Positions 4,967 through 63,707 of a stretch of DNA of 64,000 bases are shown piece after piece (within the stretch, counting starts at the first letter, position 1; every line of letters starts with the position of its first letter). A program made the position numbers and the translations under genes. The notes under the pieces are model-generated. The model was given only the letters and a program-made list of their open reading frames with translations, made no database searches and had not been told where the DNA came from. Origin of the DNA: an uncultured Bacteroidales bacterium. Lineage in GTDB: Bacteria > Bacteroidota > Bacteroidia > Bacteroidales > TTA-H9. The stretch spans positions 16,758 to 80,757 of the forward strand of contig CAZKHA010000002.1 in assembly GCA_964552325.1 (NCBI GenBank). The letters are read 5' to 3'.

Positions 4967-4973
4967 CGTATTC

Positions 4974-5408
4974 TTATATAATTCCGGTGTGTCCAAAACC
5001 ACCTTCGTTTCGATCGGTACTAGTTAAATTATCAACGCTATTCCATACAATTTGTTGGTGTGGAGCTACAACAAGTTGAGCAATTCGTTCGCCATCATTA
5101 ATTACAAACGCTTCGGTAGAAAGATTTATTAGAATAATCATCACCTCGCCTCTATAATCTGAATCAATAGTTCCTGGTGCATTCAAAACTGTAATTCCAT
5201 GTTTAATTGCCAGCCCACTGCGTGGTCGAATCTGTCCTTCAAAACCTTCAGGAATCTGGATAAACAGGCCCGTGGGAATCAAAACACGTTCCAATGGAGC
5301 TAAAGTCCTATTTTCGCTCAAATTTGCCCTTAAATCAAGACCTGCGGCAGAAGTACTTGCGTATTCGGGTAATGGATGCTTCGATCTGTTAATTACGTTA
5401 ACTTGCAT
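4974..5408 (-). CDS. dut: dUTP diphosphatase
   Basis: [35 protein letters not shown] motifs. Confidence 0.97.
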
Positions 5409-5430
5409 ACTTAAAATTGCTAAACGGCCT

Positions 5431-5438
5431 CAAAAGTA
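5431..5438 (-). promoter_or_regulatory. Bacteroidota -7 promoter element (TACTTTTG) upstream of dut operon
   Basis: Matches TAnnTTTG on minus strand about 23 nt upstream of dut ATG. Confidence 0.6.
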
Positions 5439-6078
5439 CAAAAAAATAGGCCATAAACCCACAAATGGTCTAAGTTCTTAAAGTAAACCTCACATTATTA
5501 GGAACTTAATCTTATCTATAAAAGTTTACGCCAACCATTCATGCTAAGTAATCGCTTCTGCTACTTGTTGCAACAAAAAGAATTGCAGTAGGCTCCAAAT
5601 GTTAGCTGGCGAACCTAAGTCAAAAAAGTAACTACAATATAATTAAGCATTTAGTTGCCGCTAAAAGTGCTTTTTTTATCAAGTGCTTCGCTGAGCATGC
5701 ACAGAGCCTGTTGAAATGTGCCGGAGCCTGCCGAAGCTGCACAAAATCACCAAGAAAAACTAAGTACAAATAATGGCAATGAAACTTGTTGATAATAGTT
5801 GATCATAAAAATTCTTGACTCATTCTTAGAGTTATGGCTTTACGGAAGAGTCGCACTATTAGATTAATGGTGTTGATTACATTAACTACTGAATTAAATA
5901 AGCAATTTTGAAAAATCGAAAACTAAACGGCTAACCCAAAGATAGCGCAAATGAGACCTTGCATCTGAAAATTGAGTTTAACACTTGTTAATCATAAAAT
6001 TACGCTTAAACAGAGTGCTTATGAATATGCCGAACAATCGTAAATCACCAAATTGGTATCACTAATTTAAACGCGCTA

Positions 6079-29300: not shown

Positions 29301-30152
29301 CTAACCACTGCTTTTAAACGGATCGAAGATTTTATCTCGAAAGAAGTACGACGATTATTGATTGTGGAAGATGATGCCAATATGCGTAAAAGCATCAAAG
29401 AACTTATTGGCGATAAAGATGTTAGCACCATTGCTGTGGATAATGGCGACAAGGCATATGAACTCCTTCAGCAAGAACAGTTTGATTGTATCATACTTGA
29501 TCTCGGGCTTAAAGGATCGAGTGGTTACGAGGTGCTTGAAAAAATCAGGAAAAACGAAGCCATCTCTCGCATACCAATAGTTATATACACCGGAAAAGAT
29601 TTGAGCCAAGAAGAAGAGACTATGCTCAAAAAATATGCGGATAGTATTATCATAAAAGGGGCAAAATCACCCGAACGATTATTGGCTGAGACATCAATTT
29701 TCTTGCATAGGGTAGAAGCCAGCTTGCCAAAAGACAAACAAAAACAACTTGATATGCTTCAAGATAAAGAAGATGTATTCAAGAACAAGAAAATTTTGGT
29801 AGTGGATGATGATATGCGAAATGTATTTGCCCTTTCGAGTGTACTCGAAGAAAAGGGTATGAGCATAGTGGTAGGCCGCAATGGACGCGATGGAATTGAA
29901 AAACTGGAGAAAAATACGGATACCAACCTCATTATTATGGATATTATGATGCCAGAAATGGATGGTTATGAGGCTATAAGCCTAATAAGGAAAGCCCCTA
30001 AACTCCAAAAAATCCCCATCATAGCCCTAACGGCAAAAGCCATGAAAGATGACAGGGAAAAGTGTATAGCCGCTGGTGCAAATGATTATCTTACCAAACC
30101 CGTTGACACGGCAAGGCTTCTCTCATTATTAAGGGTCTGGTTATATAAATAA
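26358..30152 (+). CDS. Membrane hybrid histidine kinase (TM-sensor-TM-2xHAMP-GAF-coiled coil-HisKA-HATPase-3xREC)
   Basis: Two TMs, SKDEIG and SEKDVLG HAMPs, [18 protein letters not shown] repeats, [15 protein letters not shown], three receiver domains; ATG at 26358. Confidence 0.93.
27867..28016 (+). repeat. Two 28-aa (84-nt period) coiled-coil repeats LQxQQEELRxxNEELEExTRxL
   Basis: [22 protein letters not shown] at 27867 and [22 protein letters not shown] at 27951. Confidence 0.85.
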
Positions 30153-30159
30153 GAAAACG

Positions 30160-31812
30160 ATGGATACAAATAAACCCAAAATACTTATAGTTGATGATAA
30201 GGAGCAAAACCTTATAACCCTTGAAGCCGTTTTGGGCGACTTTGAGGTAATATTTAACCGTGCCCTATCGGGTAACGAAGCACTTGCGTTAAGCCTTGAG
30301 CATGACTTTGCCCTTGCCATTATCGATATTCAGATGCCCGATATGGACGGATACGAAACTGTGAAGTTGATGCGGCAGGTAAACCGAACGAAAAACCTCC
30401 CAATCATATATGTATCTGCAATTTACAAAGAAGAATTTCATGTTGTAAAGGGTATTGAAGCCGGTGCTGTTGACTTTATTGTGAAACCCATTTTACCAGA
30501 AATACTTAAAGGCAAGGTAAAGGTATTCTTAGAACTGTATAAACACAAGGTAAACCTAGAAGAGTTGGTAAAACAACGCACCAACGAGCTACAACGAAAG
30601 AACGAACAGTTTTTGCAGGAAAAACAAAAAGCAGAAGCAGCAACCAATTCAAAATCAATGTTTTTGGCCAATATGAGCCACGAAATCAGGACCCCTCTAA
30701 ACGGTATAATTGGTATGACCAATTTGCTGAAACGAACTGACTTAAACAATGAACAAACTGAAATGCTTGATATCATTTCCATATCCAGCGATTACCTTCT
30801 TACTGTTATCAACGATATCCTTGACTTCTCGAAGATTGAATCGGGCCAAGTTGATTTAGAAAACATTGCTTTTAACCTTACCGATACCCTTAATGAAACC
30901 ATCACCATTTTTAGACCTAGATTACTTGGTAGCGAAATAAAAATGCAACTCACACAAAGCCAAACCGTGCCTAAATATGTAAAAGGTGATCAGGTGCGTT
31001 TAAAACAAATCCTCAGCAATTTGCTTGGCAATGCTGTTAAGTTTACCGAAAAAGGAAACATAACCATTGAAGTTCGGGTACTTGAAGAAGCTGCCGATTA
31101 CATAAAACTTAAATTTGATGTAAAAGATACCGGAATAGGCATTGATGAAGAAAACCTGTCAAAACTGTTTAAATCGTTTTCGCAAGCCGATGCATCAACA
31201 ACCCGCAAATATGGTGGGACCGGGCTTGGATTGGCAATTAGCAAGAGTTTGACTGAAATGATGGGCGGCAATATTGGCGTTACCAGTAAAAAAGGCAGTG
31301 GTTCTGATTTCTATTTTACGATTGTGTTTAACAAAGTAACTGACGAACAAGAAATACTTAAGCTGTTGAAGCCGCCTAAAAATGAACCTATTGAATCGCA
31401 ACCTAAAAAAATCCTTTTAGCCGAGGATAACCTCATCAATCAAAAAGTGGCTACTTACACCCTCAAAAACCTGGGATGCTCGTTTAAAATAGCCTCAAAT
31501 GGACTTCAGGCTTTAGAACTTTACAAGGCCGAACCATTCGATATCATCTTGATGGATATACAAATGCCTGAAATGGATGGTCTTGAGGCTACGCAAGCCA
31601 TTCGTGAATACGAACAAGAAAAAGGAATTGTACCCGGAGTAACCATTATTGCCTTAACCGCTAATGCAATAAAAGAAGCCATAGATGAGTATTTGTCGAA
31701 GGGCATGAACGGCTTTTTACCAAAGCCCTTTAAACCCGATGAGCTTCAAAACCTAATTAAAAACATTTCAAGTAAACCTAGCAATTATGAGCCAAGAAAA
31801 CCTCAATATTGA
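30160..31812 (+). CDS. Cytoplasmic hybrid histidine kinase (REC-HisKA-HATPase-REC)
   Basis: [50 protein letters not shown]. Confidence 0.93.
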
Positions 31813-32626
31813 ACTAAAGCTTTTATTAGAAGCTCTTTATCTCAAATATGGCTATGATTTTAGGAGTTATTCGCAAGCCCATATTAAGCGGAGATTACTT
31901 CATAGGATGAATCTTGCCAATTGCAGCAGCTTATCAGAGATGCAATATAAGATACTGTATGATCAGGCATTTGCCCAACAGGTTCTGTACGATTTCTCGA
32001 TAAACGTAACCGAAATGTTTCGCGACCCAGACTTTTATAAGGCTGTTAGAGAACAAGTTATACCAATTCTAAAAACATACCCGTTTATTAAGATTTGGCA
32101 TGCAGGCTGTTCTACGGGCGAGGAAGTATATTCAATGGCTATACTGTTGAAAGAAGAAGGCTTGTTTGACCGTTCGCAGATATATGCCACCGATTTTAAC
32201 CAAAAAGTGCTTAAAACGGCAAAAGATGGTATCTATCCAATAGATAAGATCAAAGAGTACACCTATAATTATCAAAAAGCAGGCGGTAAGGAATCTTTCT
32301 CAAACTATTATGATGCTGATTACAACTCCGTTATAATAGATAAAAACCTTAAAAAAAACATTGTATTTGCCGATCATAACCTTGTAACGGATAGTGTGTT
32401 TGCCGAGGTTAACATTGTTTTTTGCCGAAATGTGCTCATTTATTTTACCAAAGACCTTCAAGACAGGGTAATACGCTTATTTCTTGAAAGCCTAATACCT
32501 GGGGGGGTTTTATGCCTTGGTTCGAAGGAAAACATACAATTTTCAGAACATGGGCAACACTTTTCTGTTATTAACAGAAACGAAAAGATATTTAAGAAGG
32601 AATACTCATATAAAAACACCTTGTGA
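31787..32626 (+). CDS. cheR: CheR-family protein-glutamate O-methyltransferase
   Basis: [46 protein letters not shown]. Confidence 0.93.
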
Positions 32627-41205: not shown

Positions 41206-43149
41206 GTGATCCGACAAGAAACCATAGCCAAAATACTTGATGCCGCACGCGTTGAAGAAGTTGTGGGTGAATTTGTTTCCCTTAAAAAGAAGGGAGGCAA
41301 TTACACGGGCCTATGTCCTTTCCATAACGAAAAAACGCCCTCGTTTTATGTTTCGCCCGTAAAAGGCATTTACAAATGCTTTGGTTGCAGTGCTTCGGGT
41401 ACTGCGGTGCGCTTTTTAATGGATCATGAGCATTATACCTATCCTGAAGCGCTTAGGTACCTTGCTAAAAAATACAATATTGAAGTTGAGGAACATGAGC
41501 AAACCGCCGAGGATATAAAGGCAGCGGGCGAACGCGAGAGCCTTTACAGCGTAACGGCATTGGCTGCAAGCTTTTTTACCGAAACCCTATGGAACACCGA
41601 GCCAGGCCGCTCTATTGCCTTATCATACTTTGAAGAACGCGATTTTTCGCATGCCACTATTACCAAATTTGGATTGGGCTTTGCCCCCGATAGCCGTGAT
41701 GCACTGTTTAAATTTGCTGCCACAAAAGGATATAAACCCGAATACCTCGAAAAAGCCGGTTTGGTTTTAGATAAAGATGGTACATATATTGACCGCTTCA
41801 GAAACCGTGTAATTTTCCCCATACACAACCTCTCGGGCAGGGTAATTGGATTTGGTGGCAGGATACTCACCCGCGAAAAAAACCTCGCCAAATACATCAA
41901 TTCGCCCGAATCCGAGATCTACCACAAAACCAATGTGCTTTATGGAATATCATTTGCCAAAAAAGACATTGCCAGCCTCGACAATTGCTACTTGGTAGAA
42001 GGCTATACCGATGTGATATCAATGCATCAGGCTGGAATTACCAATGTGGTAGCCTCCTCGGGAACCTCGCTTACTACCGAACAGATTCGACTTATAAAAC
42101 GCTATACCTCAAATATTACCATTTTATATGATGGAGATTTGGCAGGTATAAAAGCTTCTTTTAGAGGCATTGATATGGTTTTGCAGGAAGCTTTAAACGT
42201 GCGAATCGTATTGTTTCCGGATGGAGAAGACCCAGATTCGTTTTCGCGAAAAAAACGCCCCGAAGAAGTTAAGGAATACATTACAACCCAAGCTAATGAT
42301 TTCATCGTATTTAAAACCAACCTCTTACTAAAAGAAGCAGAGGGAGACCCAATTAAACGGGCTGGACTAATCAAAGAAATTATTTCTTCTATTGCCCTGA
42401 TTCCAGATGGTATTATCCGTGAGGCTTATGTGCGGGAGTGCTCATCGTTGATGGATATGCGCGAGCAAACTTTAATTTTTGAACTCAACAAACTGCTGCG
42501 CAAGGGCCAAAAAAAAGAAGATGCCCCAGCCGAGCCAATAGCTTCTGAAAATCAACCTATTGAAATTCCTGCTCAGAAGGATAACGATCGGCTGAACCTA
42601 AAGACCCAAGAACTAAACATCATACGAATTTTGATTAGCTATGGCGACCAAGATTTTTCATTTCCTGTTATAAAACCCAAAGGCATTATTGAAGAAGTAC
42701 CTGTTAAAACCGGACTATTTATTGTAAATGAACTAATTGAAGATGAATACACCTTCGAAAATCCCATTTACCATAAAATCTTTAGCGAGTACAAGGAAGC
42801 ATTTAAAAATGAGTTGGTTCCTGGTGAGCAGTTCTTTATAAACCATTCAGATACCGAAATTTCTGACTTTACCATTTCCTTAATAGCTACACCCTTTCAG
42901 TTAAGCCCCAATTGGTTCGATCGGAAAGGAATTCATACCCCCACCGAACTCGAAAAACTCAAAGACTTGGTAATTAACTCGGTATATTCGCTAAAACTGC
43001 GAAAAATCGAAATAATGATTGCTGAAATACAGGAAGAAATAAAAACAGCCGACGAGATAGATGTAATGCTATTATTGAAAAAACAGTTTGATTTACAAAC
43101 ACTAAGAAGTGCCGTTTCGAAACAGCTTGGAAGGATTATCCTTAATTGA
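41206..43149 (+). CDS. dnaG: DNA primase
   Basis: CPFHNEKTPSF...CFGC zinc finger, FRNRVIFPI, KYINSPE, VEGYTD, YDGD, DPD. Confidence 0.97.
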   Translation: MIRQETIAKILDAARVEEVVGEFVSLKKKGGNYTGLCPFHNEKTPSFYVSPVKGIYKCFGCSASGTAVRFLMDHEHYTYPEALRYLAKKYNIEVEEHEQTAEDIKAAGERESLYSVTALAASFFTETLWNTEPGRSIALSYFEERDFSHATITKFGLGFAPDSRDALFKFAATKGYKPEYLEKAGLVLDKDGTYIDRFRNRVIFPIHNLSGRVIGFGGRILTREKNLAKYINSPESEIYHKTNVLYGISFAKKDIASLDNCYLVEGYTDVISMHQAGITNVVASSGTSLTTEQIRLIKRYTSNITILYDGDLAGIKASFRGIDMVLQEALNVRIVLFPDGEDPDSFSRKKRPEEVKEYITTQANDFIVFKTNLLLKEAEGDPIKRAGLIKEIISSIALIPDGIIREAYVRECSSLMDMREQTLIFELNKLLRKGQKKEDAPAEPIASENQPIEIPAQKDNDRLNLKTQELNIIRILISYGDQDFSFPVIKPKGIIEEVPVKTGLFIVNELIEDEYTFENPIYHKIFSEYKEAFKNELVPGEQFFINHSDTEISDFTISLIATPFQLSPNWFDRKGIHTPTELEKLKDLVINSVYSLKLRKIEIMIAEIQEEIKTADEIDVMLLLKKQFDLQTLRSAVSKQLGRIILN

Positions 43150-46100
43150 CAAGAAATTTTTGCAAGACTGTTGAACCTTTAATCCGTACGAAATAAGCTC
43201 CTTTTGCAAAAGCGCTCAAATCAATACGCAGCTGATTGATTGTTGATACAAGCTTTTGTGCATAAACAATCTTTCCATTTGCATCCATTATCTCCAATTC
43301 GCTATCAGCATTAACAGGCAAATTGAATTTGATGCCTAAATATGTACTTGCCGGATTGGGAAACAACCCAAGCAAATTTGCTCTTAATGGATCGTTTAGG
43401 CCCCAGCCTGGGCAGTGGGTCATACTAACCTTAATTGAATCAGAGGTTTCACAAGCATTACCATCAACCACCTTTACACTAAAAATTGCCGAAGATCCCA
43501 CAGGAACCACTATCGAATCAATTTCTAAAAAACGGCTTGCGGAACCAGTGGACCATTGATAGGACGAAAAGTCAGCACCTGCATCAAGGATAAGGGTTTG
43601 AAGTGTGCAAATGGATGTATCGGTACCTAAATGGATGCTGGGTAGTTGAAAAACGGTAACGCGTATCGAATCGCAAGGTGAATCGCCACATGCGTTGCTA
43701 ATTTGGGCATAATACGTTTGTGAGGAAGTTGGCGCAAGAACATTGTTATGGTAGGCTGTTCCCGCAATGCTCCCATTACAAGCTCCTAAATACCATATAA
43801 TTGAATCACCTGATACTGAATCGGCAGCAAGTTGAATAGCGGAAACAGCACCTAAGCAGTAACTTGATGGGGTTGCAAGTAGGTTGGTGGGTTGCGTTGG
43901 TGGACTTTGAATAAAGACCATTAAAGAATCTTCGGTGGTGGCCATATTGGTAATAGCCTTAAGCTTAAGGCGAACCTTTCCATTGGTTATATCTTGTAAT
44001 CCAGGAAAATAATCGGTTATTAAGGCTTGTGGCTGGCTAAAAACACCATCACCCATAGTTGTCCATGTAATGGATGCATAATTAGAGCCAACCGCCTCAA
44101 TATGAACCGAATCTTGATTAGCACAAATACCTCGATCAGTTCCTGCTTCAACCTGTGGCAGGTTAAATATTGGCAGTGAAATATAATCAACCCAGACCTT
44201 ATCTTCACCTGCCGAAAAATAAGGATCTTTGCTATACTGCCACCTAAGCGTATGATTACCTGCTGGAACCATATAAGCAACACGTTTCCAATCACGTATG
44301 CCCGACCATTTTCCGTACCGTATATTATCAACATAAAACTGCAATTGGTCATAATTTGATTCGGTGGAAGTTTTATACCAGAACGAAACCGAATCATCGG
44401 AGGCTATTTGGTATGAAAGGTATAAAACAGATTCTTCTTCATCGTCTATATCGCCAGACGCTGCACAGAAATGGCCTTCGTATGGCAAGTTTGAGGCAAT
44501 TGAAAAGAGCTTGTTGCCGCTGCGCATCCAGGGATACTTTTGAAAACTGCCCGTTTCCCAATCTTCAACAATAAGTCCAACACGGGAGAAAAAATCCTTT
44601 TGTGCAAAAAATAAGCCCGATTGTGCTTCGAAGTGGAACATTATATTTATTCCATAAGGAGCTGTAGGCGCCAGTTTTACACTAAAATAAGCTGTATCTA
44701 TTTGATTACTTACCAATTGTGGAATAATTGAACTTGACTGCAGCACCTGAAGCTCAGGAGTGGAGGTAGTTAGGCTGCATAAAACCGATTCCAACGGAAA
44801 ATCGCCAGTATTCTGCACCCACAGCTTAAGGATGGCTTGCTCGCCAGGATCAAGAATTTTGTTTGCATTTCCTTCTTCATCATTGATGGCATAGGTGAGT
44901 ATTGCAAGTTGTGGAGCTTTTGAAACAATTCTAAAATGGCTGTACCAAGTACTATCGCCATCGGTTGCTTTAAGGTCAAAGCGTACGTTTATACCATCGG
45001 GAATTGTATCGGAGACTTTTAGGGTGTAAGCTTCTTCTTTAGCTATGGATTGGCCGATATTGAAACTACCATAGTTTTCGATGCTATCGGTGATAGTGAC
45101 ATAAGGTGAGGTGCTTAAAAGTGTAACAACAACATTTTGAGCAGGTTCATCACCAATATTTTTCATTGTAATGGTAAAGTGCACCGAATCGCCAAAAATC
45201 AATTCGGGCTCGTTGCTAGGGTCGGCGGGTGTTATTTCAAGGTTTTGATAAATCACATATGGCTGATTTGGCGGAGGTCCGGTTTCAAAAGGGCTGGTAT
45301 AGGCGAGGGTATTACCGGAACGATTGTCGCTCCAAACGGGATAAACTTTTCGATCGTAGGCCGTAATTCCCAAATAATCACCCATATAGCCACCTCCAAG
45401 GCCTGGAATAGGGGAGGGGGTAAACGCAAAATCGCTCACCCTGAAATCGTCCCATGCTTGGCCTCCATCATACGAATTTGCAACCCAAACCTCACAATCC
45501 TCGGGACCTGTATTACGGTCGTCGAAAAAAATTACACTTAAGGTTCCCGTAACGGGGTCGCAGGTAATCCAGGGCATGAAATGTTCTTTGCCCAAACCCG
45601 GCGCATCTTGGTTTATTTTAATCGGATCGCTCCACGATGCCCCATTATTGCTCGATTTTATGAGGTAAAGGTCAATATCCGGACCGGTATTTACACCCGG
45701 AAATCCCAAATTATTCCACACCACATAAATTGTTCCCCGGTTTGGGCCGTTACTTTGGTCAACAGCCATAACCGGAAAACCGCTTACTCGCATATTTTTT
45801 GATGTTAAAGAATTACGCAAACCATTGATATTATTTATAATACGGTAAGCAGGCTCAAAGGTTTGGCCACCATCAAATGAGCGTGCAAAACCCAAGGCAT
45901 TTTCATCGCCCGGCCAAGTATCATAAATGGCCCAAACTAAGTACAGCTCTCCATTGGGCCCTGTTTGTATGTTTACACCTTGGCTATGTGCCAATGCATT
46001 TACACCAAGACTTACATTCATTGGAGAGGACCATGAAATACCATTGTTGATGGACCGTGCAAGTTGAATTAATCCATTGTTGTTGCCACCAAAACGTGTC

Positions 46101-46798
46101 CAAGCGGCATAAACATTGCCTAAGTACGGGCTGGTTGTACTGTTATCAACCCATAAATGATTCTTATCAAGTAGGTTAGGATATCCTGTAACACTTGCCA
46201 GAACCACATCATCCCAGGTTTGGCCACCATTAACCGAACGAGCCACCGACTGGCCATAAAAAGCATTTATTTTGCCAATGTACATGGTACTGTTTAACGA
46301 AATAGCAGCAGCAGGATCACCTGCATTATCCTCGCCAGCACCATATAGTTGGCCTTCCCACGATTGCCCAGCGTCCTCTGAAAGTTGGTAATTAGCACCA
46401 AACATCATTTGGGCAGGATAATCGGAACTATTGTTTGAATTGAGAATGCTATCATTATCGTTGGGATTGACAAACACCGAGTTTTCACTTTGAGTTGTTA
46501 AGCCTTCTTCAATTAAAACATCGGGCGAATCCTGAATACTACCCTGACGCATAATAAGTTGGCTTCCTTTAAAAATCGGTGGTTTATAACCTTTATCATC
46601 GGCCACTTTAATCAACCCATTCTTGGCTTGCTGCCTCCAATAAAACATATTATCAACCCGATTATCATAGTAAGGTGATGGATTGGCCAGTAGGTTCAAT
46701 TGCCGGTCAATTCCTTTCTTTTGAGCATTAGAATATGGGCATGCTGCAAAAAACAGTATAAACCAAAGGCATACGCTAAAAGCATTCGAACTTCTCAT
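43142..46798 (-). CDS. T9SS cargo: BNR/Asp-box beta-propeller plus Ig-like and adhesin-like domains and CTD
   Basis: Six SxxxGxxW/F boxes (SEDAGQSW, SVNGGQTW, SINNGISW, SFDGGQTF, SSNNGASW, SYDGGQAW); C-terminal FPNPA...G.YFVRI...K. Confidence 0.75.
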   Translation of the reverse strand: MRSSNAFSVCLWFILFFAACPYSNAQKKGIDRQLNLLANPSPYYDNRVDNMFYWRQQAKNGLIKVADDKGYKPPIFKGSQLIMRQGSIQDSPDVLIEEGLTTQSENSVFVNPNDNDSILNSNNSSDYPAQMMFGANYQLSEDAGQSWEGQLYGAGEDNAGDPAAAISLNSTMYIGKINAFYGQSVARSVNGGQTWDDVVLASVTGYPNLLDKNHLWVDNSTTSPYLGNVYAAWTRFGGNNNGLIQLARSINNGISWSSPMNVSLGVNALAHSQGVNIQTGPNGELYLVWAIYDTWPGDENALGFARSFDGGQTFEPAYRIINNINGLRNSLTSKNMRVSGFPVMAVDQSNGPNRGTIYVVWNNLGFPGVNTGPDIDLYLIKSSNNGASWSDPIKINQDAPGLGKEHFMPWITCDPVTGTLSVIFFDDRNTGPEDCEVWVANSYDGGQAWDDFRVSDFAFTPSPIPGLGGGYMGDYLGITAYDRKVYPVWSDNRSGNTLAYTSPFETGPPPNQPYVIYQNLEITPADPSNEPELIFGDSVHFTITMKNIGDEPAQNVVVTLLSTSPYVTITDSIENYGSFNIGQSIAKEEAYTLKVSDTIPDGINVRFDLKATDGDSTWYSHFRIVSKAPQLAILTYAINDEEGNANKILDPGEQAILKLWVQNTGDFPLESVLCSLTTSTPELQVLQSSSIIPQLVSNQIDTAYFSVKLAPTAPYGINIMFHFEAQSGLFFAQKDFFSRVGLIVEDWETGSFQKYPWMRSGNKLFSIASNLPYEGHFCAASGDIDDEEESVLYLSYQIASDDSVSFWYKTSTESNYDQLQFYVDNIRYGKWSGIRDWKRVAYMVPAGNHTLRWQYSKDPYFSAGEDKVWVDYISLPIFNLPQVEAGTDRGICANQDSVHIEAVGSNYASITWTTMGDGVFSQPQALITDYFPGLQDITNGKVRLKLKAITNMATTEDSLMVFIQSPPTQPTNLLATPSSYCLGAVSAIQLAADSVSGDSIIWYLGACNGSIAGTAYHNNVLAPTSSQTYYAQISNACGDSPCDSIRVTVFQLPSIHLGTDTSICTLQTLILDAGADFSSYQWSTGSASRFLEIDSIVVPVGSSAIFSVKVVDGNACETSDSIKVSMTHCPGWGLNDPLRANLLGLFPNPASTYLGIKFNLPVNADSELEIMDANGKIVYAQKLVSTINQLRIDLSAFAKGAYFVRIKGSTVLQKFLVN

Positions 46799-46833
46799 GA
46801 CAAACAGGGGTTGATATTCAGGCATAAAAGTAT

Positions 46834-46859
46834 AAAAAAAGCCGGGCATACACCCGGCT
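46834..46859 (-). terminator. Intrinsic terminator after deiminase gene
   Basis: Minus strand AGCCGGG...CCCGGCT followed by T-run. Confidence 0.8.
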
Positions 46860-46880: not shown

Positions 46881-48929
46881 TTAACGTACTAGCACTACCC
46901 GAGCCTGTTTAACCTCCTTATTGGAAGTCATACGAATTATGTACACGCCTTGGGGTAAATCTTGGCCTGCTTGCCCGGTTCCATCCCATTGAATTGAATG
47001 GATTCCTGCTGTAATATACTGATTTAAAATATTCTTAACACAAGTTCCTGCCAAATCATAAACTCCTAAATCAATACTAGTACTTTCCGTGACATTCAGT
47101 TTGATAAGCGTATTTGCCGTAAAAGGATTTGGTGTAATGTTAATTTGGGCTACAGAAACTGGTTTCGTGATTCCAACACCAGAGTTAACCTCAAAAGTAA
47201 CTAAGATTGAATCCTTTGGCAAATCAGGGTCGTTGGAGTTTACATAGATTTTACCCTGATAGGTACCTACCGATAAGAGACTTGCATCGAGCAATACATT
47301 AATTTGGGCATTGGCACTTGGGCTTAGCACTCCTCCTGTGCTTTGCGGAATTATCCAAGTTGAAGAGCTAGCATCGGCAGCTACGGTATAAATAAGGTCG
47401 GCACTACCCGTATTTTCAATTGTAAATGAACTATTTACAGTATTTCCGGGTGTGGATACAGTATCAATAACATGATTATCAATTGCCATATGTGCATGAA
47501 CAGCAGCGCCTACCGTAAACACATGTGGGTCAGGCTCTCCAATATAAGGATGCAGCATAACGTTGCCGCTGGCATCTTTGGCTTTAAGATAATAGGCTAT
47601 GGTACTTCCTTCGGCTTGTCGTGGAATAGTTGCAGAATAGGAGCGGTAGCCGGTTTTGGTTAAAGGAAGGGTTTGATAGCTTCCGCCGTTTACTTTATAA
47701 TAAACCAAGGTAGAATCAGCTACAAGAGCTGAACCACTTAAAGGGGCTATTATGGCTGAAAGATGATAATCTTCGTCACTGGGCTGCTGGGTTAAAATGG
47801 GCATATGCTTCACATAAAGCATGTTTTTATCCCCCATTTCATGTGTGCGACAGTGCAATGCATCAGTTGATTCCCAAGGAGTTGAAGCAGCTTCATAAAC
47901 CCCAACAATCTCATATCCAGGCATTGCGTTTTGATAAACGAGCATTGCTTGGTTATCGTAAGTAGCGTTTCCTTTTAAAGGCACAAACACTTTTTTATTG
48001 ATAATATAGGAATTGGTATAGGGCTGATCATTGGGTGTATTTACCCTAAAAACCTGGTAAGTAGTTCCATAACCGCTGATGGCTGTTTGCCAGAATGCCG
48101 CTGCTGCTTCAATAAGTGCATATTGTGGGTGTGAGGTGGGGACTTGCCGTACAAGGATTTTATCAACATCCAAAAATTTTGACCAGCAGTCAATATGATC
48201 AATGTAAGTTCCATTAGGGTCAGGGCGAATGTAGTAGGTTTCAACACCCAGGTAATCCTTAAATTTCTGGTTGATCTCAGCAACTGTTTGGGTTGGATTT
48301 TCTTCTACAACCAAATCGGTTGAGGCTGCTTTGCCCATGCCATCGCACATATAATTGCCGCCGGTATGAATTACATTCATTCCAAAAAGCGGGTAGTTCA
48401 TCAATTGGGCAACTTTTACTGGGATATCATCGTCTTGTGGACGGCTGGGTCGGTTATACGGAAAATCGGAAACACTAACGGTATAACTACTATCTAGTAC
48501 AAACCAAGGGCCGTAATCACGTGTCCAATAACTATTTGAAGGTGCTATTAAAAAATCGCAATTAGCTGTGTTAACGCCATTGCTTGTGTATTGGTTTAAG
48601 ACGGTGGTTTGTTGCGACGCACTTGAAACGATGGTAGTAACTTGATAGTCTTCTGCTATTGCTTTGATCAACGTAATAGGAATTCCGAACGGATACCTGA
48701 CCAATGTACCTTGGGCATGGTTAAATTCGGCCAGATTAACAACCGGTGCCAAAGGAGGGTCGGTGGGGGTAAAACTTTTTATGGGACTAAAAAAATCTAA
48801 CAGATTGGCAGCAGCGTGCGCTTGGTTAGAAACAATGCCATGATTTTTTTCAGGATTTTGTGCTAAAGAAGCTATTGAAAAAAAACATAAGCAGCTTATA
48901 ACCAATAAAATAGTGTAAAACTGTTTCAT
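46881..48929 (-). CDS. Secreted peptidylarginine deiminase (PPAD-like, agmatine deiminase superfamily) with Ig-like domains and T9SS CTD
   Basis: Signal peptide from ATG 48929; LVRYPFGIP, YWTRD, YNRPSRP, GGNYM, DPNGTYIDHIDCW, QPYTN, TDALHCRTHE, IGEPDP; CTD PNPF...WDG...GVY. Confidence 0.88.
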   Translation of the reverse strand: MKQFYTILLVISCLCFFSIASLAQNPEKNHGIVSNQAHAAANLLDFFSPIKSFTPTDPPLAPVVNLAEFNHAQGTLVRYPFGIPITLIKAIAEDYQVTTIVSSASQQTTVLNQYTSNGVNTANCDFLIAPSNSYWTRDYGPWFVLDSSYTVSVSDFPYNRPSRPQDDDIPVKVAQLMNYPLFGMNVIHTGGNYMCDGMGKAASTDLVVEENPTQTVAEINQKFKDYLGVETYYIRPDPNGTYIDHIDCWSKFLDVDKILVRQVPTSHPQYALIEAAAAFWQTAISGYGTTYQVFRVNTPNDQPYTNSYIINKKVFVPLKGNATYDNQAMLVYQNAMPGYEIVGVYEAASTPWESTDALHCRTHEMGDKNMLYVKHMPILTQQPSDEDYHLSAIIAPLSGSALVADSTLVYYKVNGGSYQTLPLTKTGYRSYSATIPRQAEGSTIAYYLKAKDASGNVMLHPYIGEPDPHVFTVGAAVHAHMAIDNHVIDTVSTPGNTVNSSFTIENTGSADLIYTVAADASSSTWIIPQSTGGVLSPSANAQINVLLDASLLSVGTYQGKIYVNSNDPDLPKDSILVTFEVNSGVGITKPVSVAQINITPNPFTANTLIKLNVTESTSIDLGVYDLAGTCVKNILNQYITAGIHSIQWDGTGQAGQDLPQGVYIIRMTSNKEVKQARVVLVR

Positions 48930-48979: not shown

Positions 48980-49091
48980 GCAAAGTTTGCATCTATTAAT
49001 AATATCATTCCTAAGCCCAAGCCTTTGCTATTGATCAAAAACTCAATAAGTAGCTACCTTTGGAACTTGAATGTATGATAAACCAATACCT

Positions 49092-49427
49092 ATGGAACAT
49101 AACTGGACCGAAAACCTAAACATTGCAATAACAGTTTGCAATACAGAGGCTGACATTATTTATATGAATGCGAAATCGAGAGCAACCTTTGCCAAGTACG
49201 GTGAAAACCTCTTGAATCAAAGCCTATACAATTGCCATGGCGAGGCTTCGTCAGAAAAAATTAGGCAAATGCTAAGCGATGGAAGCGAAAATATTTACAC
49301 CATTGAGAAAGCTGGTGTTAAAAAAATCATTGTTCAGATGCCCTGGAAACAAGATGAACTTATTGCAGGATTGGTAGAACTTTCGATTGAACTACCCAAG
49401 GATATGGCACATTTTGTTAGAAAATGA
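49092..49427 (+). CDS. Stand-alone PAS-domain protein
   Basis: AITVC...IIYMN...L.NCH...N.YTIEK.G.KK PAS pattern; start 49092 or 49071. Confidence 0.7.
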   Translation: MEHNWTENLNIAITVCNTEADIIYMNAKSRATFAKYGENLLNQSLYNCHGEASSEKIRQMLSDGSENIYTIEKAGVKKIIVQMPWKQDELIAGLVELSIELPKDMAHFVRK

Positions 49428-52659: not shown

Positions 52660-54801
52660 ATGAAAAGAATCATACTTACAACTTTAGTTATAGTATTATT
52701 TATCAGTCAACTACAACTAAGTGCACAAAAATTATTTACGCCCGAAGATGCTTCGTACAACAATACATCGTTGTATGCAAAAGGCTTATCAAATCTTCAA
52801 TGGTTGCCAAATACCACTCAATTTACTTATGTATCAAACAATTGCCTTGTTAAAGGGACTCCTGAGTCCGAATCGAGGGATACGATTCTTAAGCTTAGCA
52901 AGTTGAACGATGCTTTTGTGCAACAAGGCCTTAAAGCTAGTAAGAACTTCCCTGCAATAAAATGGGTTGATGAAGCTCGTTTTACGGTTACTAAATCGAA
53001 TAAGATATTTTTATATGATATTATAAATCATGGTATTAAATTGTTAAACGCATATCCTGACGATGCCACAAATACCGATGTGGCACCCGTTACTAATTTT
53101 GTTGCTTATACCCGCGACAACAATTTATTTGTAAGCTTTGATGGCAACGAACAAGCTGTAAGCAACGAAACAAATACGGGGATACTTTATGGCTCAGAAC
53201 GCGTACATCGGAATGAATTTGGCATTGAAAAAGGAACTTTCTGGTCGCCAAATGGTAAACTATTGGCTTTTTATCGCATGGATGAAACCATGGTTACCAA
53301 TTATCCATTAGTTGATATCTCAACACGTATTGCCGAACTAAAAAACACACGCTATCCTATGGCCGGAATGACCAGCCACCAAGTGACAATTGGAGTGTAT
53401 AATACTGAAAATAAAAAAATTACATACTTAAATACGGGATTACCAGCCGATCAGTACCTTACAACCGTAACATGGGATCCCAAATCGGAGCATATTTATG
53501 TAGCTGTGTTGAATCGTGATCAAAACCACATGAAATTTAATAAGTACGATGCTAAAACAGGAAAACTTGTTAGAACCTTGTTCGAAGAGCACAATGAACG
53601 TTATGTTGAGCCAGAAAACGATCCTGAGTTTTTGCCAAATGATGATTCAAAATTTATTTGGTTAAGCGAACGCGATGGCTACAAGCATATGTACCTTTAC
53701 GATACTACTGGAAAGCTTTTGAGTCAGCTCACCAAAGGAAACTGGATGGTGAACAAAATCATAGGATTTAACCCGAAACTCGGATTAGCTTATTTTAACG
53801 CAACCAAGGACAGCCCATTACAAAGCAATGCTTACAGTATTGATATTAAAAAGCTTACAATTAAGCGCCTAACCCCTGAACATGGTACCCACACAGCTAT
53901 GATCAGTACAAATGGTAACTATATAATTGATAGCTATTCAAGTAGTGATATCGCAAAAAGAATAGTGGTTTATGATGCCAAAAACAAGCTTGTACAAGAA
54001 TTGCTTAAAAATACCAACCCTTTAAGTGATTACAATGTACCCTCTACAAAAGTGTTTTCAATTAAAAGTTCAGATGGCACTGATTTGTATTGCCGATTGA
54101 TAAGACCTGTTGATTTTGATAGTACTAAAAAGTACCCGGTAATAGTTTACGTTTATGGAGGTCCCCATGCCCAGCTTATTACGGATACTTGGTTATGGGG
54201 CGCTGGTATCTATCTAAATTACTTAGCCCAACAAGGATATTTGGTATTTACGCTCGATAATCGTGGTTCGGCCAACAGGGGTTTTGAGTTTGAAAGCATT
54301 ATACATCGTAACTGCGGGAAAATGGAAGTTGAGGATCAAATGGCTGGAGTACGTTATTTAAAGACCTTGCCTTACGTTGACATAGAACGAATTGGGGTGG
54401 ATGGTTGGAGCTACGGTGGATTCATGACCATCAATTTATTGTTGGAAAACCCGGGAGTATTTAAAGCTGGTTGCGCCGGTGGACCTGTGTGTGATTGGAA
54501 ATATTATGAGGTGATGTACGGCGAACGGTACATGGACACACCCGAAAGCAATCCGGAAGGGTATAAAGCTTCTAGCTTAATTGAGAATGCTGATAAGTTA
54601 AGCGATAAACTAATGATTATTCATTGCACCACCGATCCGGTTGTGGTTTGGCAAAACAGTTTATCGTTTGTTCAAAAATGCATCGAAAACAAGCAATTAC
54701 TCGAGTATTTTGTGTATCCCGGACATGACCATAATGTTGGAGGGATAGATAGAGCCCATTTAATCAGGAAAATAGAAGACTACTTTAAGCGAACTCTTTA
54801 A
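52660..54801 (+). CDS. S9B peptidase (DPP IV / prolyl tripeptidyl peptidase-like)
   Basis: FWSPNG, YPMAG, YVYGGPH, DNRGS, GWSYGG, D.VV, YPGHDH catalytic triad. Confidence 0.92.
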   Translation: MKRIILTTLVIVLFISQLQLSAQKLFTPEDASYNNTSLYAKGLSNLQWLPNTTQFTYVSNNCLVKGTPESESRDTILKLSKLNDAFVQQGLKASKNFPAIKWVDEARFTVTKSNKIFLYDIINHGIKLLNAYPDDATNTDVAPVTNFVAYTRDNNLFVSFDGNEQAVSNETNTGILYGSERVHRNEFGIEKGTFWSPNGKLLAFYRMDETMVTNYPLVDISTRIAELKNTRYPMAGMTSHQVTIGVYNTENKKITYLNTGLPADQYLTTVTWDPKSEHIYVAVLNRDQNHMKFNKYDAKTGKLVRTLFEEHNERYVEPENDPEFLPNDDSKFIWLSERDGYKHMYLYDTTGKLLSQLTKGNWMVNKIIGFNPKLGLAYFNATKDSPLQSNAYSIDIKKLTIKRLTPEHGTHTAMISTNGNYIIDSYSSSDIAKRIVVYDAKNKLVQELLKNTNPLSDYNVPSTKVFSIKSSDGTDLYCRLIRPVDFDSTKKYPVIVYVYGGPHAQLITDTWLWGAGIYLNYLAQQGYLVFTLDNRGSANRGFEFESIIHRNCGKMEVEDQMAGVRYLKTLPYVDIERIGVDGWSYGGFMTINLLLENPGVFKAGCAGGPVCDWKYYEVMYGERYMDTPESNPEGYKASSLIENADKLSDKLMIIHCTTDPVVVWQNSLSFVQKCIENKQLLEYFVYPGHDHNVGGIDRAHLIRKIEDYFKRTL

Positions 54802-60578: not shown

Positions 60579-63500
60579 ATGAAACACTTTTTTATCCTCG
60601 TTATAACCGTTTTTTGTTCAACTACTGTTTTTGCACAAAACACACCCAAATTCATAAACAAGGCTGATACTGCCGCACTACACAAATTGGCCTTGGAGGC
60701 CAAATCCTATTTTACCACCCAACGTAACTTAGCATTGGGGAGCGTTCAGCGCAATAAGTTGGATATTACAAAATTAGCTGACAATGGGGGTACCTTGGAA
60801 CCCGTTGGCATTGAACCTGACGGAAAACCCTTGTTTTTTGGCACATCAAATCTAAATGCAGCAAAAACCGTATCTACTGACAAAGTGTGGCCAGGAGGTT
60901 CCGCGGGATTAAGTTTAACAGGCAGTGGAATGACGATAGGCGTTTGGGATGGGGGAAAAATCCTAAGCACACACGACGAGTTTGGCGGCAGGGCCATACA
61001 AGCCGATGCCGCTGTAATAAATGGCAACTCGAATCACGCAACCCATGTTTCGGGAACCATGATAGCCGCTGGTGTAAACCCAAGCGCTAAAGGCATGGCT
61101 TATCAAGCCAATTTAAGGGCACACGATTGGGCCTTTGATGTAATGGAAATGGCCAACGAAGCTGCTGACGGCCAGATTCTTTCTAACCATTCATATAAAC
61201 ATATTTCGGGATGGGAAGGTAGGTATTGGTATGGTGATACAACTATTAGCAGGGTAAAAGATTATAAATTCGGGTTTTATGGAACCAGCACACGGCAGTT
61301 TGATTTAATCTGCAATTATGCACCTTATTATTTACCAGTGGTTGCTGCCAGCAACGACCGAAACAACACATCCACGTATCCCGGCAAACTTAACACAGGG
61401 TATTGTTGGAATGGAGTTGCTTGGGTTTATAGCAGTTCTGCACGTCCACCTGATGGGCCTTATGATTGTATCCCAACTTTTTGCACAGCAAAAAATATTC
61501 TTACGGTTGGTAATGTAAACGATATTACGGCTGGATATGCCAGCCCTGCAAACGTTGTTTTGGTTAGTTCGAGCTCATGCGGACCAACCGACGATGGACG
61601 GATTAAACCAGATATTGTTGCAAATGGACAAAGCCTACTTTCTTCTGTAAGTACAGGCGTTAGCGCTTATTCAACACTTACAGGCACCTCCATGGCTACG
61701 CCAAACACTTCAGGATCGCTGTTGTTGGTTCAGCAGCACCATCACAACTTTTATGGCCAGTATCTTAAAAGCGCAACGCTAAAAGCATTGGTTATCAACA
61801 CGGCTGATGAAGCTGGAGCTGGCAATGGCCCCGATTATCAGTTTGGCTGGGGTTTGTTAAACACCAAAAAGGCTTGTGATGCAATCACAAACAATGATAG
61901 TGTAAGCATTATTAAGGAAATAAGCCTTAAACAAGGCCAAACCTTTAGCATGGATTTTTATGCCGATGGCACCACAGCAATTAGAAGTGTGATAGCCTGG
62001 AACGACCCTGCAGCCAGTATTTCGCCTTGGGTAAACGACCCAACAACCCCCAAATTGGTGAACAACCTCAACATGGTCCTCACGAAATCAGCCGCTACTT
62101 GGAATCCGTATATTTTAAATCCTTCAAGCCCTTCAAGCATGGCTACTACTGGCAGCAACAGCCTTGATAATGTTGAACGCATAGACATTAACACGCCCGC
62201 AGCAGGAGTTTATACCCTTACGGTAACCCATTCCGGAGTCTTGCAAAACGGCGAACAAGAATTTTCGTTGGTAATTACCGGTATTAGAAATTATGCTCCC
62301 AAACAGTTTAAAGCGGTTGTGGCTTCAGAAAGCCAAATTGACCTAAGCTGGGAGCTCAACAGTAGCAAGCCCGTGATTATTGCAACAAGTCTTGATGGGG
62401 TTTTTGGCAATCCTGTTGATGGGGCTAGCTATACACCGGGCAGCACACTACCTGGCGGAGGAACAATTTTGTACATAGGTTCCGCAACCACGTTTGCACA
62501 TTCGAGCCTTACACAACACAGCACTCATTTTTACCGCATTTGGTCACAAATAAACGGTACTCCCGACTATTCCGAAGGCCTTCCTGCCAATGCCACAACG
62601 TGGTGTTCTTCAATAGCATTACCTTATACACAATCATTTGACACCACTGCCATGCCCCCATGTTGGCAAATCTTGAAATCGGGCAATGCCGAAGGCTGGA
62701 CAATTTCAAACACTAATTATGGCAATGGAACACCAACGGAGCTGTATCATACTTGGGAAGATTTGTACACAAACACCAGCGCTGGGTTAGCAACTGCTGA
62801 AAGCAGAGCCGTTTTACCCCCTGTTAATACGCTGGGTATGTCGTCCTTAACGATTACTTTCACACATTACTATAAAGACCCAACGTGGAGTAGCTATGGC
62901 ACAGCAACCATTAAGGTGCAAAGCAGTAGCGATGGCATAAACTGGACCACCGAAGGATTGAGCCATGCATCACATACAGGGAGCTTGGGCCCAGAGATAA
63001 AACAAGTGTTGATAACCAACAACCTAAACCAGCCTAAAACGTTTATTGCCTTCACTATAACTGGTGATTTATTAGACTTTTGGTATTGGGCCATTGATGA
63101 TATTTATTTGGATCAAACAATTTTTTCACCTAAGGCAGTTAGTTTAAAAGTGCTTCACGAGGGTTTGTGGAATGGCAGTGGTTTATCAAAAGCAAAGGAT
63201 GGGTCGAGCGATAAGTTTGCAGGCCTGATTTCTGATAGATTGTCCATTAATTTGCATGATGCATTAGCCTATAGCACAATACATTATTCTTTGGATAGTA
63301 TTAATCTTGCAAGCAATGGGCAGGCCATGTTTTTGGTTCCTTACAACTACAATGGCTCATATTATTTAAGCGTAAAACACCGCAATTTGGTTGAAACCGT
63401 TAGTGCTTCACCCATTTCTTTTGCAGGCACTACGGTAAGCTATGATTTTAGCACAAGTGCTTCCCAAGCCTTTGGTGGAAACCAAAAAGAAATTGCACCC

Positions 63501-63707
63501 GGCATCTTTGGTCTTTATTGTGGTGATGCCGATGGTGATGGACAAGTGGATGAGGATGACATACTTAACATATCTTCCGATGCTACGGGTTTTAATTCAG
63601 GGTATTTATCCACCGATTTAAATGGCGATGGAATAGTAGATGCTCTTGATTTGATTTTGTTGGATAACAATGCACGTAATTTGGTGGGAAGCATTACTCC
63701 GCCGTAA
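60579..63707 (+). CDS. Secreted S8 subtilase with FN3/adhesin-like domains and C-terminal dockerin-like module
   Basis: GVWDGG (Asp), HATHVSGT (His), GTSMATP (Ser), DGRIKPD; GDADGDGQVD and DLNGDGIVDALD at C-terminus. Confidence 0.88.
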   Translation: MKHFFILVITVFCSTTVFAQNTPKFINKADTAALHKLALEAKSYFTTQRNLALGSVQRNKLDITKLADNGGTLEPVGIEPDGKPLFFGTSNLNAAKTVSTDKVWPGGSAGLSLTGSGMTIGVWDGGKILSTHDEFGGRAIQADAAVINGNSNHATHVSGTMIAAGVNPSAKGMAYQANLRAHDWAFDVMEMANEAADGQILSNHSYKHISGWEGRYWYGDTTISRVKDYKFGFYGTSTRQFDLICNYAPYYLPVVAASNDRNNTSTYPGKLNTGYCWNGVAWVYSSSARPPDGPYDCIPTFCTAKNILTVGNVNDITAGYASPANVVLVSSSSCGPTDDGRIKPDIVANGQSLLSSVSTGVSAYSTLTGTSMATPNTSGSLLLVQQHHHNFYGQYLKSATLKALVINTADEAGAGNGPDYQFGWGLLNTKKACDAITNNDSVSIIKEISLKQGQTFSMDFYADGTTAIRSVIAWNDPAASISPWVNDPTTPKLVNNLNMVLTKSAATWNPYILNPSSPSSMATTGSNSLDNVERIDINTPAAGVYTLTVTHSGVLQNGEQEFSLVITGIRNYAPKQFKAVVASESQIDLSWELNSSKPVIIATSLDGVFGNPVDGASYTPGSTLPGGGTILYIGSATTFAHSSLTQHSTHFYRIWSQINGTPDYSEGLPANATTWCSSIALPYTQSFDTTAMPPCWQILKSGNAEGWTISNTNYGNGTPTELYHTWEDLYTNTSAGLATAESRAVLPPVNTLGMSSLTITFTHYYKDPTWSSYGTATIKVQSSSDGINWTTEGLSHASHTGSLGPEIKQVLITNNLNQPKTFIAFTITGDLLDFWYWAIDDIYLDQTIFSPKAVSLKVLHEGLWNGSGLSKAKDGSSDKFAGLISDRLSINLHDALAYSTIHYSLDSINLASNGQAMFLVPYNYNGSYYLSVKHRNLVETVSASPISFAGTTVSYDFSTSASQAFGGNQKEIAPGIFGLYCGDADGDGQVDEDDILNISSDATGFNSGYLSTDLNGDGIVDALDLILLDNNARNLVGSITPP

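Follow-up and report, generated by a model that had tools for sequence, protein, structure and literature searches.

Does PPAD, the protein-citrullinating deiminase of Porphyromonas gingivalis, have true counterparts outside Porphyromonas and, if so, what would they do for the bacteria that carry them? The question is raised by a gene at positions 46881..48929 (minus strand; 682 aa and a stop codon) in a 64,000-nt stretch of DNA from an uncultured Bacteroidales bacterium (assembly GCA_964552325.1, contig CAZKHA010000002.1); this whole stretch is referred to as the window. An initial annotation, made from the sequence without database searches, had described the gene product as an apparent PPAD orthologue and had implied that such an enzyme is rare outside Porphyromonas. 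Passages in earlier papers describe PPAD as exclusive to P. gingivalis, or as the one bacterial peptidylarginine deiminase (PAD) that has been characterised (PMC6367333; bioRxiv 10.1101/2020.07.16.207027); others extend it to P. gulae and P. loveana, i.e. to three Porphyromonas species (PMC11756583; PMC10394638), and Cummings et al. mention, as an aside, that pPAD genes have a wider distribution than had been believed (PMC8826395).

We found that several lines of evidence support a deiminase of PPAD type rather than of agmatine deiminase (AguA) type, and that the gene is nothing out of the ordinary within its family, which is large and has hardly been studied. The most interesting result is the consistent pairing of PPAD-type deiminases with proteases resembling the Arg-gingipain RgpB. 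We consider it probable, judging by sequences and a structure model, that the gene encodes a secreted PPAD-type cysteine-hydrolase deiminase which acts on the C-terminal Arg of peptides made by an RgpB-like protease and has a scavenging role.

Evidence for a PPAD-type deiminase

The sequence match of the deiminase to PPAD is far above chance level. A phmmer search against all PDB sequences returned the PPAD chains 6i0x, 4yt9, 5ak7, 4ytg and 5ak8 at E-values of 1e-127 to 1e-130 (9.9e-131 for the PPAD match taken alone) over query residues 53-473, while agmatine-deiminase-like chains reached 2e-13 at best, with others up to 1e-4. Pfam family PF04371, which spans both enzyme kinds, was matched at E 3.7e-32 over residues 86-364. 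The NCBIfam equivalogs for AguA, TIGR03380 and NF010070, scored 58.5 bits (cut-off 381.8) and 54 bits (cut-off 483), so that neither came near its threshold. No match to PF03068 (PAD_C), the family of animal-type PADs, appeared in the Pfam scan of the deiminase at E-values up to 0.01.

The AlphaFold 2 (AF2) model of the protein, built from a 100-sequence alignment, had a predicted local distance difference test (pLDDT) score of 91.1, with low values only in pro-segment residues 23-38 and in the linker 586-590. When this model was compared with known structures by Foldseek, all seven PPAD entries came out on top, with template modelling (TM) scores (by target) of 0.96-0.98, root-mean-square deviation (rmsd) of 1.2-1.7 Å and 46-47% identity; for agmatine deiminases we saw TM scores of 0.70-0.79, rmsd of 2.9-4.8 Å and 16-20% identity.

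Seven motifs that had been quoted in that annotation as lining up with PPAD were all found, in the order given: LVRYPFGIP (residues 76-84; 48678-48704), YWTRD (residues 134-138; 48516-48530), YNRPSRP (residues 158-164; 48438-48458), the Michaelis-loop region DPNGTYIDHIDCW (residues 237-249; 48183-48221), QPYTN (residues 302-306; 48012-48026), TDALHCRTHE (residues 355-364; 47838-47867) and IGEPDP (residues 463-468; 47526-47543), all on the minus strand. With PPAD numbering taken as the crystal chain index plus 43, PPAD residues W127, D130, R152, R154 and G182 correspond to W135, D138, R160, R163 and G191 of the deiminase, and Y233, H236, D238, C239, N297 and C351 correspond to Y242, H245, D247, C248, N306 and C360. 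The predicted catalytic core (C360, H245 and N306) and the putative guanidinium-binding residues D138 and D247 are all present in the sequence, and the codon of the nucleophile Cys360 lies at 47850-47852 (minus strand), exactly where it had been placed. The putative carboxylate binders R160, R163 and Y242 are present as well, with Ser162 inserted between the two arginines. According to the description of the active site given by Goulas et al. (2015; PMC4487231), R152, R154 and Y233 of PPAD clamp the substrate's free C-terminal carboxylate, and for this reason the enzyme acts on C-terminal rather than internal Arg.

To place the deiminase within its family we used searches of two kinds. Of 8000 candidates scored in the protein search, 5557 had E-values up to 1e-3. 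The top 120 of these were 55-100% identical to the query across 96-100% of its length, and the named ones among the best 120 were each an ‘agmatine deiminase family protein’ from Bacteroidales, Bacteroidota or Cloacimonetes metagenome-assembled genomes (MAGs). Among representatives of clusters formed at 50% identity (1.84 billion searched), 3053 had E-values up to 1e-3, 1606 up to 1e-10 and 585 up to 1e-30; the best 150 were all below 1e-103 with near-full coverage, and the family holds more than 150 clusters at this level of identity.

We then aligned the query with 196 relatives (150 cluster representatives, three further proteins and 43 open reading frames (ORFs) from the loci studied). Among the 189 PPAD-type sequences of the alignment, the equivalents of C351, H236, N297 and G182 were conserved in all 189, those of D130, D238 and R154 in 188, R152 in 187, W127 in 186 and Y233 in 173. 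Three AguA-like relatives had G/A, S/A/W and T in the columns of R152, R154 and Y233, respectively. The clinical PPAD variant of entry 6I0X carries G231N/E232T/N235D; the equivalent residues here, within residues 240-244 (48198-48212, minus strand), are G, T and D, and, as a matter of description only, T (70/189) and D (62/189) are the commonest family residues in the columns of E232 and N235.

A quick IQ-TREE tree was built from 74 of the 197 alignment rows: the 43 locus ORFs, the query, five selected proteins and one in six of the remaining representatives. The place of P. gingivalis PPAD was taken in the tree by a relative, P0180 (561 aa), which matches the PPAD chain 5ak7 at E 3.9e-170 with the alignment reaching into the start of the C-terminal domain (CTD). 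A PPAD-type clade of 67 rows, set on a long stem and having an SH-aLRT (Shimodaira–Hasegawa-like approximate likelihood ratio test) value of 100, contained both the query and P0180; outside it were a second subfamily (four rows) and the AguA-like sequences (three rows). The outcome of this check, which the initial annotation had proposed, is in agreement with the PPAD assignment. The exact sister of P0180 was not settled by the tree, in which deep nodes had values of 85-92. The deiminases of the GTDB family to which the window belongs formed one clade of 13 rows.

The second subfamily (loci L047-L050; genomes G045, G044, G004 and G009) consists of proteins of 549-732 aa that match the 421-residue query from end to end at 28-34% identity. 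Several genomes of the window's GTDB family carry a member; none was found among the PF04371 genes of the window's own genome (89% complete).

Considering alignment, NCBIfam scores, predicted fold, residue columns and tree, we regard the claim that the deiminase is of PPAD type, and not AguA, as supported.

The domain layout is also that of a secreted protein. The intact minus-strand ORF runs from 48992 to 46881 (703 aa), with an in-frame ATG at 48992 upstream of 48929. The start at 48929, giving 682 aa, fits because homologues begin at a matching MK... signal peptide. The predicted signal peptide (residues 1-23; 48861..48929, minus strand as all features of this gene) has a helix at residues 2-24 in the model, and the predicted mature N-terminus is Gln24; at this boundary, 69 of 100 aligned homologues have Ala23 and 90 have Gln24. 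Substrates of signal peptidase I in Bacteroidota tend to start with Gln. A lipoprotein signal, with Cys13 after VIS, was considered and ruled out, as the cysteine is not conserved while Ala23-Gln24 is. The N-terminal pro-segment (residues 24-52; 48774..48860) ends near Lys51, in a column that holds R in 45, K in 28 and L in 24 of 100 homologues and which we take to be the Arg43 processing site of PPAD.

The catalytic alpha/beta-propeller domain (residues 53 to ~369; 47823..48773) was delimited by Pfam, phmmer, the model and the fold match. It is followed by the immunoglobulin-superfamily (IgSF) domain common to PPAD (residues ~370-473; 47511..47822); the alignment to PPAD chains ends at residue 473, the region is all-beta in the model and the fold match spans 420-425 columns. 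Next comes an extra immunoglobulin-like (Ig-like) domain (residues 474-585; 47175..47510), matched by PF22544 (28.9 bits, residues 484-570), with a weak match to NF012200, and modelled confidently as a beta-sandwich. The last is a type A CTD of the T9SS (type IX secretion system) (residues 594-682; 46884..47150), recognised over residues 598-679 by TIGR04183 (34.6 bits; cut-off 23); the T9SS tail family PF18962 gave 23.4 bits, under its cut-off of 27. The genome itself encodes T9SS machinery: two PorU sortases over cut-off and SprA. With signal peptide, CTD and machinery all in place, the deiminase is predicted to be a type IX secretion substrate, and Pfam, NCBIfam and the model bear out the layout of signal peptide, deiminase domain, Ig-like domains and CTD that had been read from the sequence. 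The extra Ig-like domain is present, as had been pointed out, but it is not unusual: among the 189 family members a PPAD-like tail is seen in 49, a single additional domain in 60 and more than one in 76, the other four being truncated. The two PorU genes are full-length tandem paralogues (G000:C99:1347-8486; 1359 and 1223 bits), and two matches are seen in many relatives too.

Distribution and pairing with RgpB-like proteases

Of 12 genomes from the window's GTDB family, 11 have an orthologue of the deiminase, with 61-80% identity. For the order as a whole we used an evenly drawn sample of 401 genomes from 148 families and defined a PPAD-type gene by a match to P0180 at an E-value up to 1e-80. 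Such genes were found in 113 of the 401 genomes and in 63 of the 237 genera, about a quarter of each; no genome of the sample had a match more than 50% identical to P0180. In the GTDB contig collection the named matches were 17 MAGs (11 Bacteroidales, three Bacteroidota and one each from Marinilabiliales, Lentimicrobiaceae and Candidatus Delongbacteria). The implied rarity outside Porphyromonas was not upheld, and the gene in the window is not exceptional, given the 113 sampled genomes of the order with a PPAD-type gene. Judged by sequence, PPAD-type enzymes are far commoner than the PPAD literature implies. Our literature search, supplementary files aside, gave no account of an order-wide distribution of PPAD-type genes or of a linkage between gingipain and PPAD genes.

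The genome from which the window comes has eight Peptidase_C25 matches, two of them the PorU sortases. One of the others is a gene for an RgpB-like gingipain of 1279 aa, located on contig C62 (G000:C62:2469-6308, minus strand; L061:170-4009) and encoding Propeptide_C25, Peptidase_C25, C25_C (Ig-like), PKD and T9SS CTD domains. The protein matches gingipain R2 (RgpB) with E-values of 9e-108 for the mature domain (PDB 4ief_B) and 3.4e-38 for the pro-domain of RgpB; the match to the Lys-gingipain Kgp reaches only 5.6e-17. Residues His211, Cys244 and Asp163 of RgpB align to identical residues; we take His211 and Cys244 to be the catalytic residues and Asp163 to be the residue of the S1 pocket. With its pro-domain, His/Cys pair, S1 Asp, Ig-like domain and CTD, the protein has the sequence features of an Arg-gingipain. 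Its neighbour on contig C62 is a second, more distant C25 gene. Identity to the RgpB-like protease is only 20-27% for the genome's other C25 genes, and for the second C25 protein that we examined (L024) there was no gingipain match in PDB.

In the 401-genome sample, gingipain-like genes (defined by a match at an E-value up to 1e-50) were found in 188 genomes. Both genes occurred in 109 genomes, the deiminase only in four, the protease only in 79 and neither in 209; for the 148 families the respective numbers were 49, 0, 31 and 68. Put another way, a gingipain-like gene was present in 109 of the 113 PPAD-bearing genomes versus 79 of the 288 genomes with no PPAD-type gene. Since PorU was found in 365 of the 401 genomes, possession of a T9SS does not explain this nesting of deiminase within protease.

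Physical linkage of the two genes was observed as well. In 10 of the 11 loci L007-L017, which represent one clade, the gene immediately upstream of the deiminase, and on its strand, is RgpB-like; the remaining locus, L015, has a flank too short to judge. In locus L012 the protease gene (2399-5800) and the deiminase gene (5842-7563) are separated by a 41-nt gap, and from the sequence such an arrangement looks like an operon. In genome G015, from another family, genes for a protease, a T9SS S8 subtilase and a deiminase follow in that order (L054:2975-11130). No linkage was seen in any of the six loci L001-L006.

Proposed mechanism and competing explanations

The explanation that we favour can be put as a sequence of five steps. 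The first three and the fifth we infer; the fourth, on protease-made substrates, rests partly on shown data. First, the deiminase would be exported by the Sec pathway, with removal of the signal peptide leaving Gln24 at the N-terminus. Second, the type A CTD would route the protein through the T9SS, PorU would remove the CTD and anchor the enzyme to vesicles or the cell surface, and the short pro-segment would probably be clipped near Lys51. Third, the C-terminal Arg of a peptide would be bound, with Asp138 and Asp247 holding the guanidinium group and Arg160, Arg163 and Tyr242 holding the carboxylate; Cys360, His245 and Asn306 would turn the arginine into citrulline with release of ammonia. 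Fourth, the substrates would most likely be Arg-ending peptides cut extracellularly by the RgpB-like gingipain of the same genome. Fifth, the likely use would be scavenging of proteins and peptides, with nitrogen released and a terminal positive charge removed; in a free-living freshwater organism manipulation of a host seems unlikely. Ammonia release, pH control or inactivation of cationic peptides had been put forward in the initial annotation as possible purposes.

Several observations weigh against this explanation, or against parts of it. The pro-segment lacks the family-conserved motif LTHWMTPEE (its Glu42 is present in 97 of 100 homologues), which is replaced by unrelated sequence here and in P0003, a relative with 90% identity. 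An insertion between the carboxylate-binding arginines, such as Ser162, is seen in only 21 of the 189 members (17 of the first 121 proteins). In the protease, the residue aligned to Glu152 of RgpB is Gln. The deiminase and RgpB-like genes of the window's genome are on different contigs (C2 and C62), and adjacency of such genes was seen in none of four 14-kb loci from relatives in its family. As 79 genomes have the protease alone, it does not depend on the deiminase. The thresholds for co-occurrence were fixed after the earlier distribution results, and related genomes are not independent samples. Finally, metatranscriptomes (two freshwater libraries of one study) gave a few contigs of 151-185 nt inside the gene, with 0-2 differences; this RNA evidence is a weak hint, because carry-over of DNA is not excluded.

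It is conceivable, though unlikely, that chemistry and secretion are as described while the enzyme physiologically uses free L-arginine or very short peptides; it would then be an extracellular nitrogen scavenger that turns arginine into citrulline and ammonia independently of any protease. PPAD presumably has some activity on free arginine. The arginine pocket is fully kept in the deiminase, free arginine also bears a free carboxylate, and the account of PPAD in PMC4487231 makes the free carboxylate the key recognition element. The separation of the deiminase and RgpB-like genes in the window's genome and family fits a protease-independent role too. Against such a role stands the retention of R154 in 188 of 189 family members; the nested co-occurrence with gingipain-like genes and the apparent operon of loci L007-L017 speak for protease-made substrates.

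We give still less credence to a change of specificity in the sub-clade, by which Ser162 would reshape the carboxylate site so that, for example, C-terminally extended or amidated arginines are tolerated. The insertion is common to the four closest sequences (clade SH-aLRT 100), and insertions at the arginine pair required at least four changes on the tree. It falls between two residues that, in the PPAD complex as described in PMC4487231, contact the substrate's main chain. Yet both arginines are kept, as is Tyr242, whose counterpart in PPAD blocks C-terminal extension according to the same description, and the model overlays substrate-bound PPAD at an rmsd of 1.2-1.3 Å with pLDDT of 85-90 over residues 151-170.

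That the protein is a secreted agmatine deiminase, as the public label ‘agmatine deiminase family protein’ would have it, appears highly improbable. NCBI and JGI call the homologues agmatine deiminase, PF04371 does not separate the two kinds of enzyme, and no other PF04371 gene was found in the 89%-complete genome. Still, the equivalog scores are far under their cut-offs, AguA structures fit much worse than PPAD, and the AguA-like relatives fall outside the PPAD-type clade and have no equivalents of R152, R154 and Y233. A non-catalytic surface protein, either an adhesin or a decayed enzyme, is hardly credible: two Ig-like domains, the CTD and the divergent pro-segment would suit it, but the frame is intact, all catalytic residues are kept and an orthologue exists in nearly every genome of the family (11 of 12).

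Returning to the PPAD-type deiminase probably supplied by an RgpB-like protease, one may ask how general such a system is. We are evenly divided on whether the two enzymes form an old and widespread extracellular two-step module of free-living Bacteroidales, sometimes encoded in an operon, that would cut proteins after Arg and then deiminate the new C-terminal Arg. If this is true, then the gingipain-PPAD pair of P. gingivalis, which is known for virulence and for its link to rheumatoid arthritis autoantigens, was not invented by Porphyromonas but descends, with adaptation to a host, from a module for scavenging nutrients. The size of the family, its spread through the order, freshwater organisms included, and its almost constant company of a gingipain-like protease give the pair an evolutionary frame and provide non-pathogenic relatives in which the benefit of PPAD-type enzymes to their bacterium can be studied. 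They also argue against taking ‘PPAD-like’ matches in metagenomes as a sign of Porphyromonas.

Host, neighbourhood and comparison with known systems

The host is in practice settled as a Bacteroidales lineage of lake and freshwater metagenomes and not a Porphyromonas, as the initial annotation had supposed. Its genome has 3.95 Mb in 314 contigs. The GC content of the window is 0.33-0.44; for P. gulae a value of 51 mol% is given in a review (PMC11756583). Relatives of the MnmG protein encoded in the window had 89, 84 and 75% identity, and below these came only ‘Bacteroidales bacterium’ MAGs with 63-65%. A 67%-identical deiminase cluster has one member labelled Lentimicrobium sp., which is a hint only. 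Near-identical copies of the gene were seen in 18 runs in which half or more of the sampled words were found; every one of these is labelled lake water or freshwater metagenome, and they come from 15 studies, one of which is perhaps the source study. A further RNA run, X24 (activated sludge), gave one 201-nt contig with eight differences, and we assigned it to a relative and not to the gene in the window. The Rfam scan of the window gave two tRNAs only and no rRNA.

The flanking genes are core chromosomal ones, for LpxK, MnmG, IleRS, DnaG, a SurA-like protein, a LysM transglycosylase, DPP-IV and NadA. Downstream of the deiminase, after a 31-nt gap, is a gene for a 1235-aa T9SS cargo protein with BNR/Asp-box, DUF11/CARDB and Ig_7 domains (43142..46849, minus strand), with which the deiminase gene may be co-transcribed; residues 997-1147 of this protein are similar to repeats found in GhpA, the grappling-hook protein of Aureispira (E 1.5e-14). 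On the other side is a divergent 118-aa ORF (49071..49427, plus strand) with no Pfam family and with 47-72% identity to its counterparts in six of nine family loci. In these nine loci of the same GTDB family the BNR/T9SS gene flanks the deiminase in eight, the 118-aa ORF in six and the LysM transglycosylase in eight; such conserved flanks point to vertical descent of the deiminase gene.

Two peptidase genes are also located near the deiminase: one for a DPP-IV-type S9 peptidase (52660-54801, plus strand; 650 bits over ~673 residues against PDB 2d5l) and one for a 1042-aa S8 subtilase (60579-63707, plus strand). Their presence fits a proteolytic lifestyle. Elsewhere in the window (24359-32626, plus strand) there are three genes for hybrid histidine kinase/response-regulator proteins followed by one for a CheR-type methyltransferase.

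Among known systems the closest is P. gingivalis PPAD (4YT9, 4YTB, 4YTG, 5AK7, 5AK8 and 6I0X). The two proteins share the series of signal peptide, pro-segment, five-bladed catalytic domain, IgSF domain and CTD, they agree in every catalytic and substrate-binding residue, and both hosts have an Arg-gingipain-type protease. The deiminase from the window differs in having one more Ig-like domain ahead of its CTD (total length 682 aa as compared with 561 in the PPAD relative P0180), in the motif YNRPSRP in place of YNRPRP of PPAD, in Lys instead of Arg at the boundary of a divergent pro-segment, and in its freshwater Bacteroidales host.

AguA enzymes (2JER, 1VKP/3H7C, 6NIB, 3HVM, 6B10 and 1XKN) share the superfamily fold and the Cys-His-Asn and two-Asp core, and differ by the low identity and TM scores given above; the three AguA-like relatives are ORFs of only 347-354 aa that carry no IgSF domain. 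The second deiminase subfamily stands nearer: it matches over its full length and adjoins the PPAD-type clade in the tree, but remains outside it, with R152 conserved in two of four sequences and Y233 in none. As far as the cited descriptions go, animal-type and cyanobacterial PADs (PF03068) carry out the same reaction on peptidyl-arginine within the same superfamily and yet form a separate lineage (PMC8826395), the animal-type enzymes being calcium-dependent and acting on internal arginines (PMC4487231).

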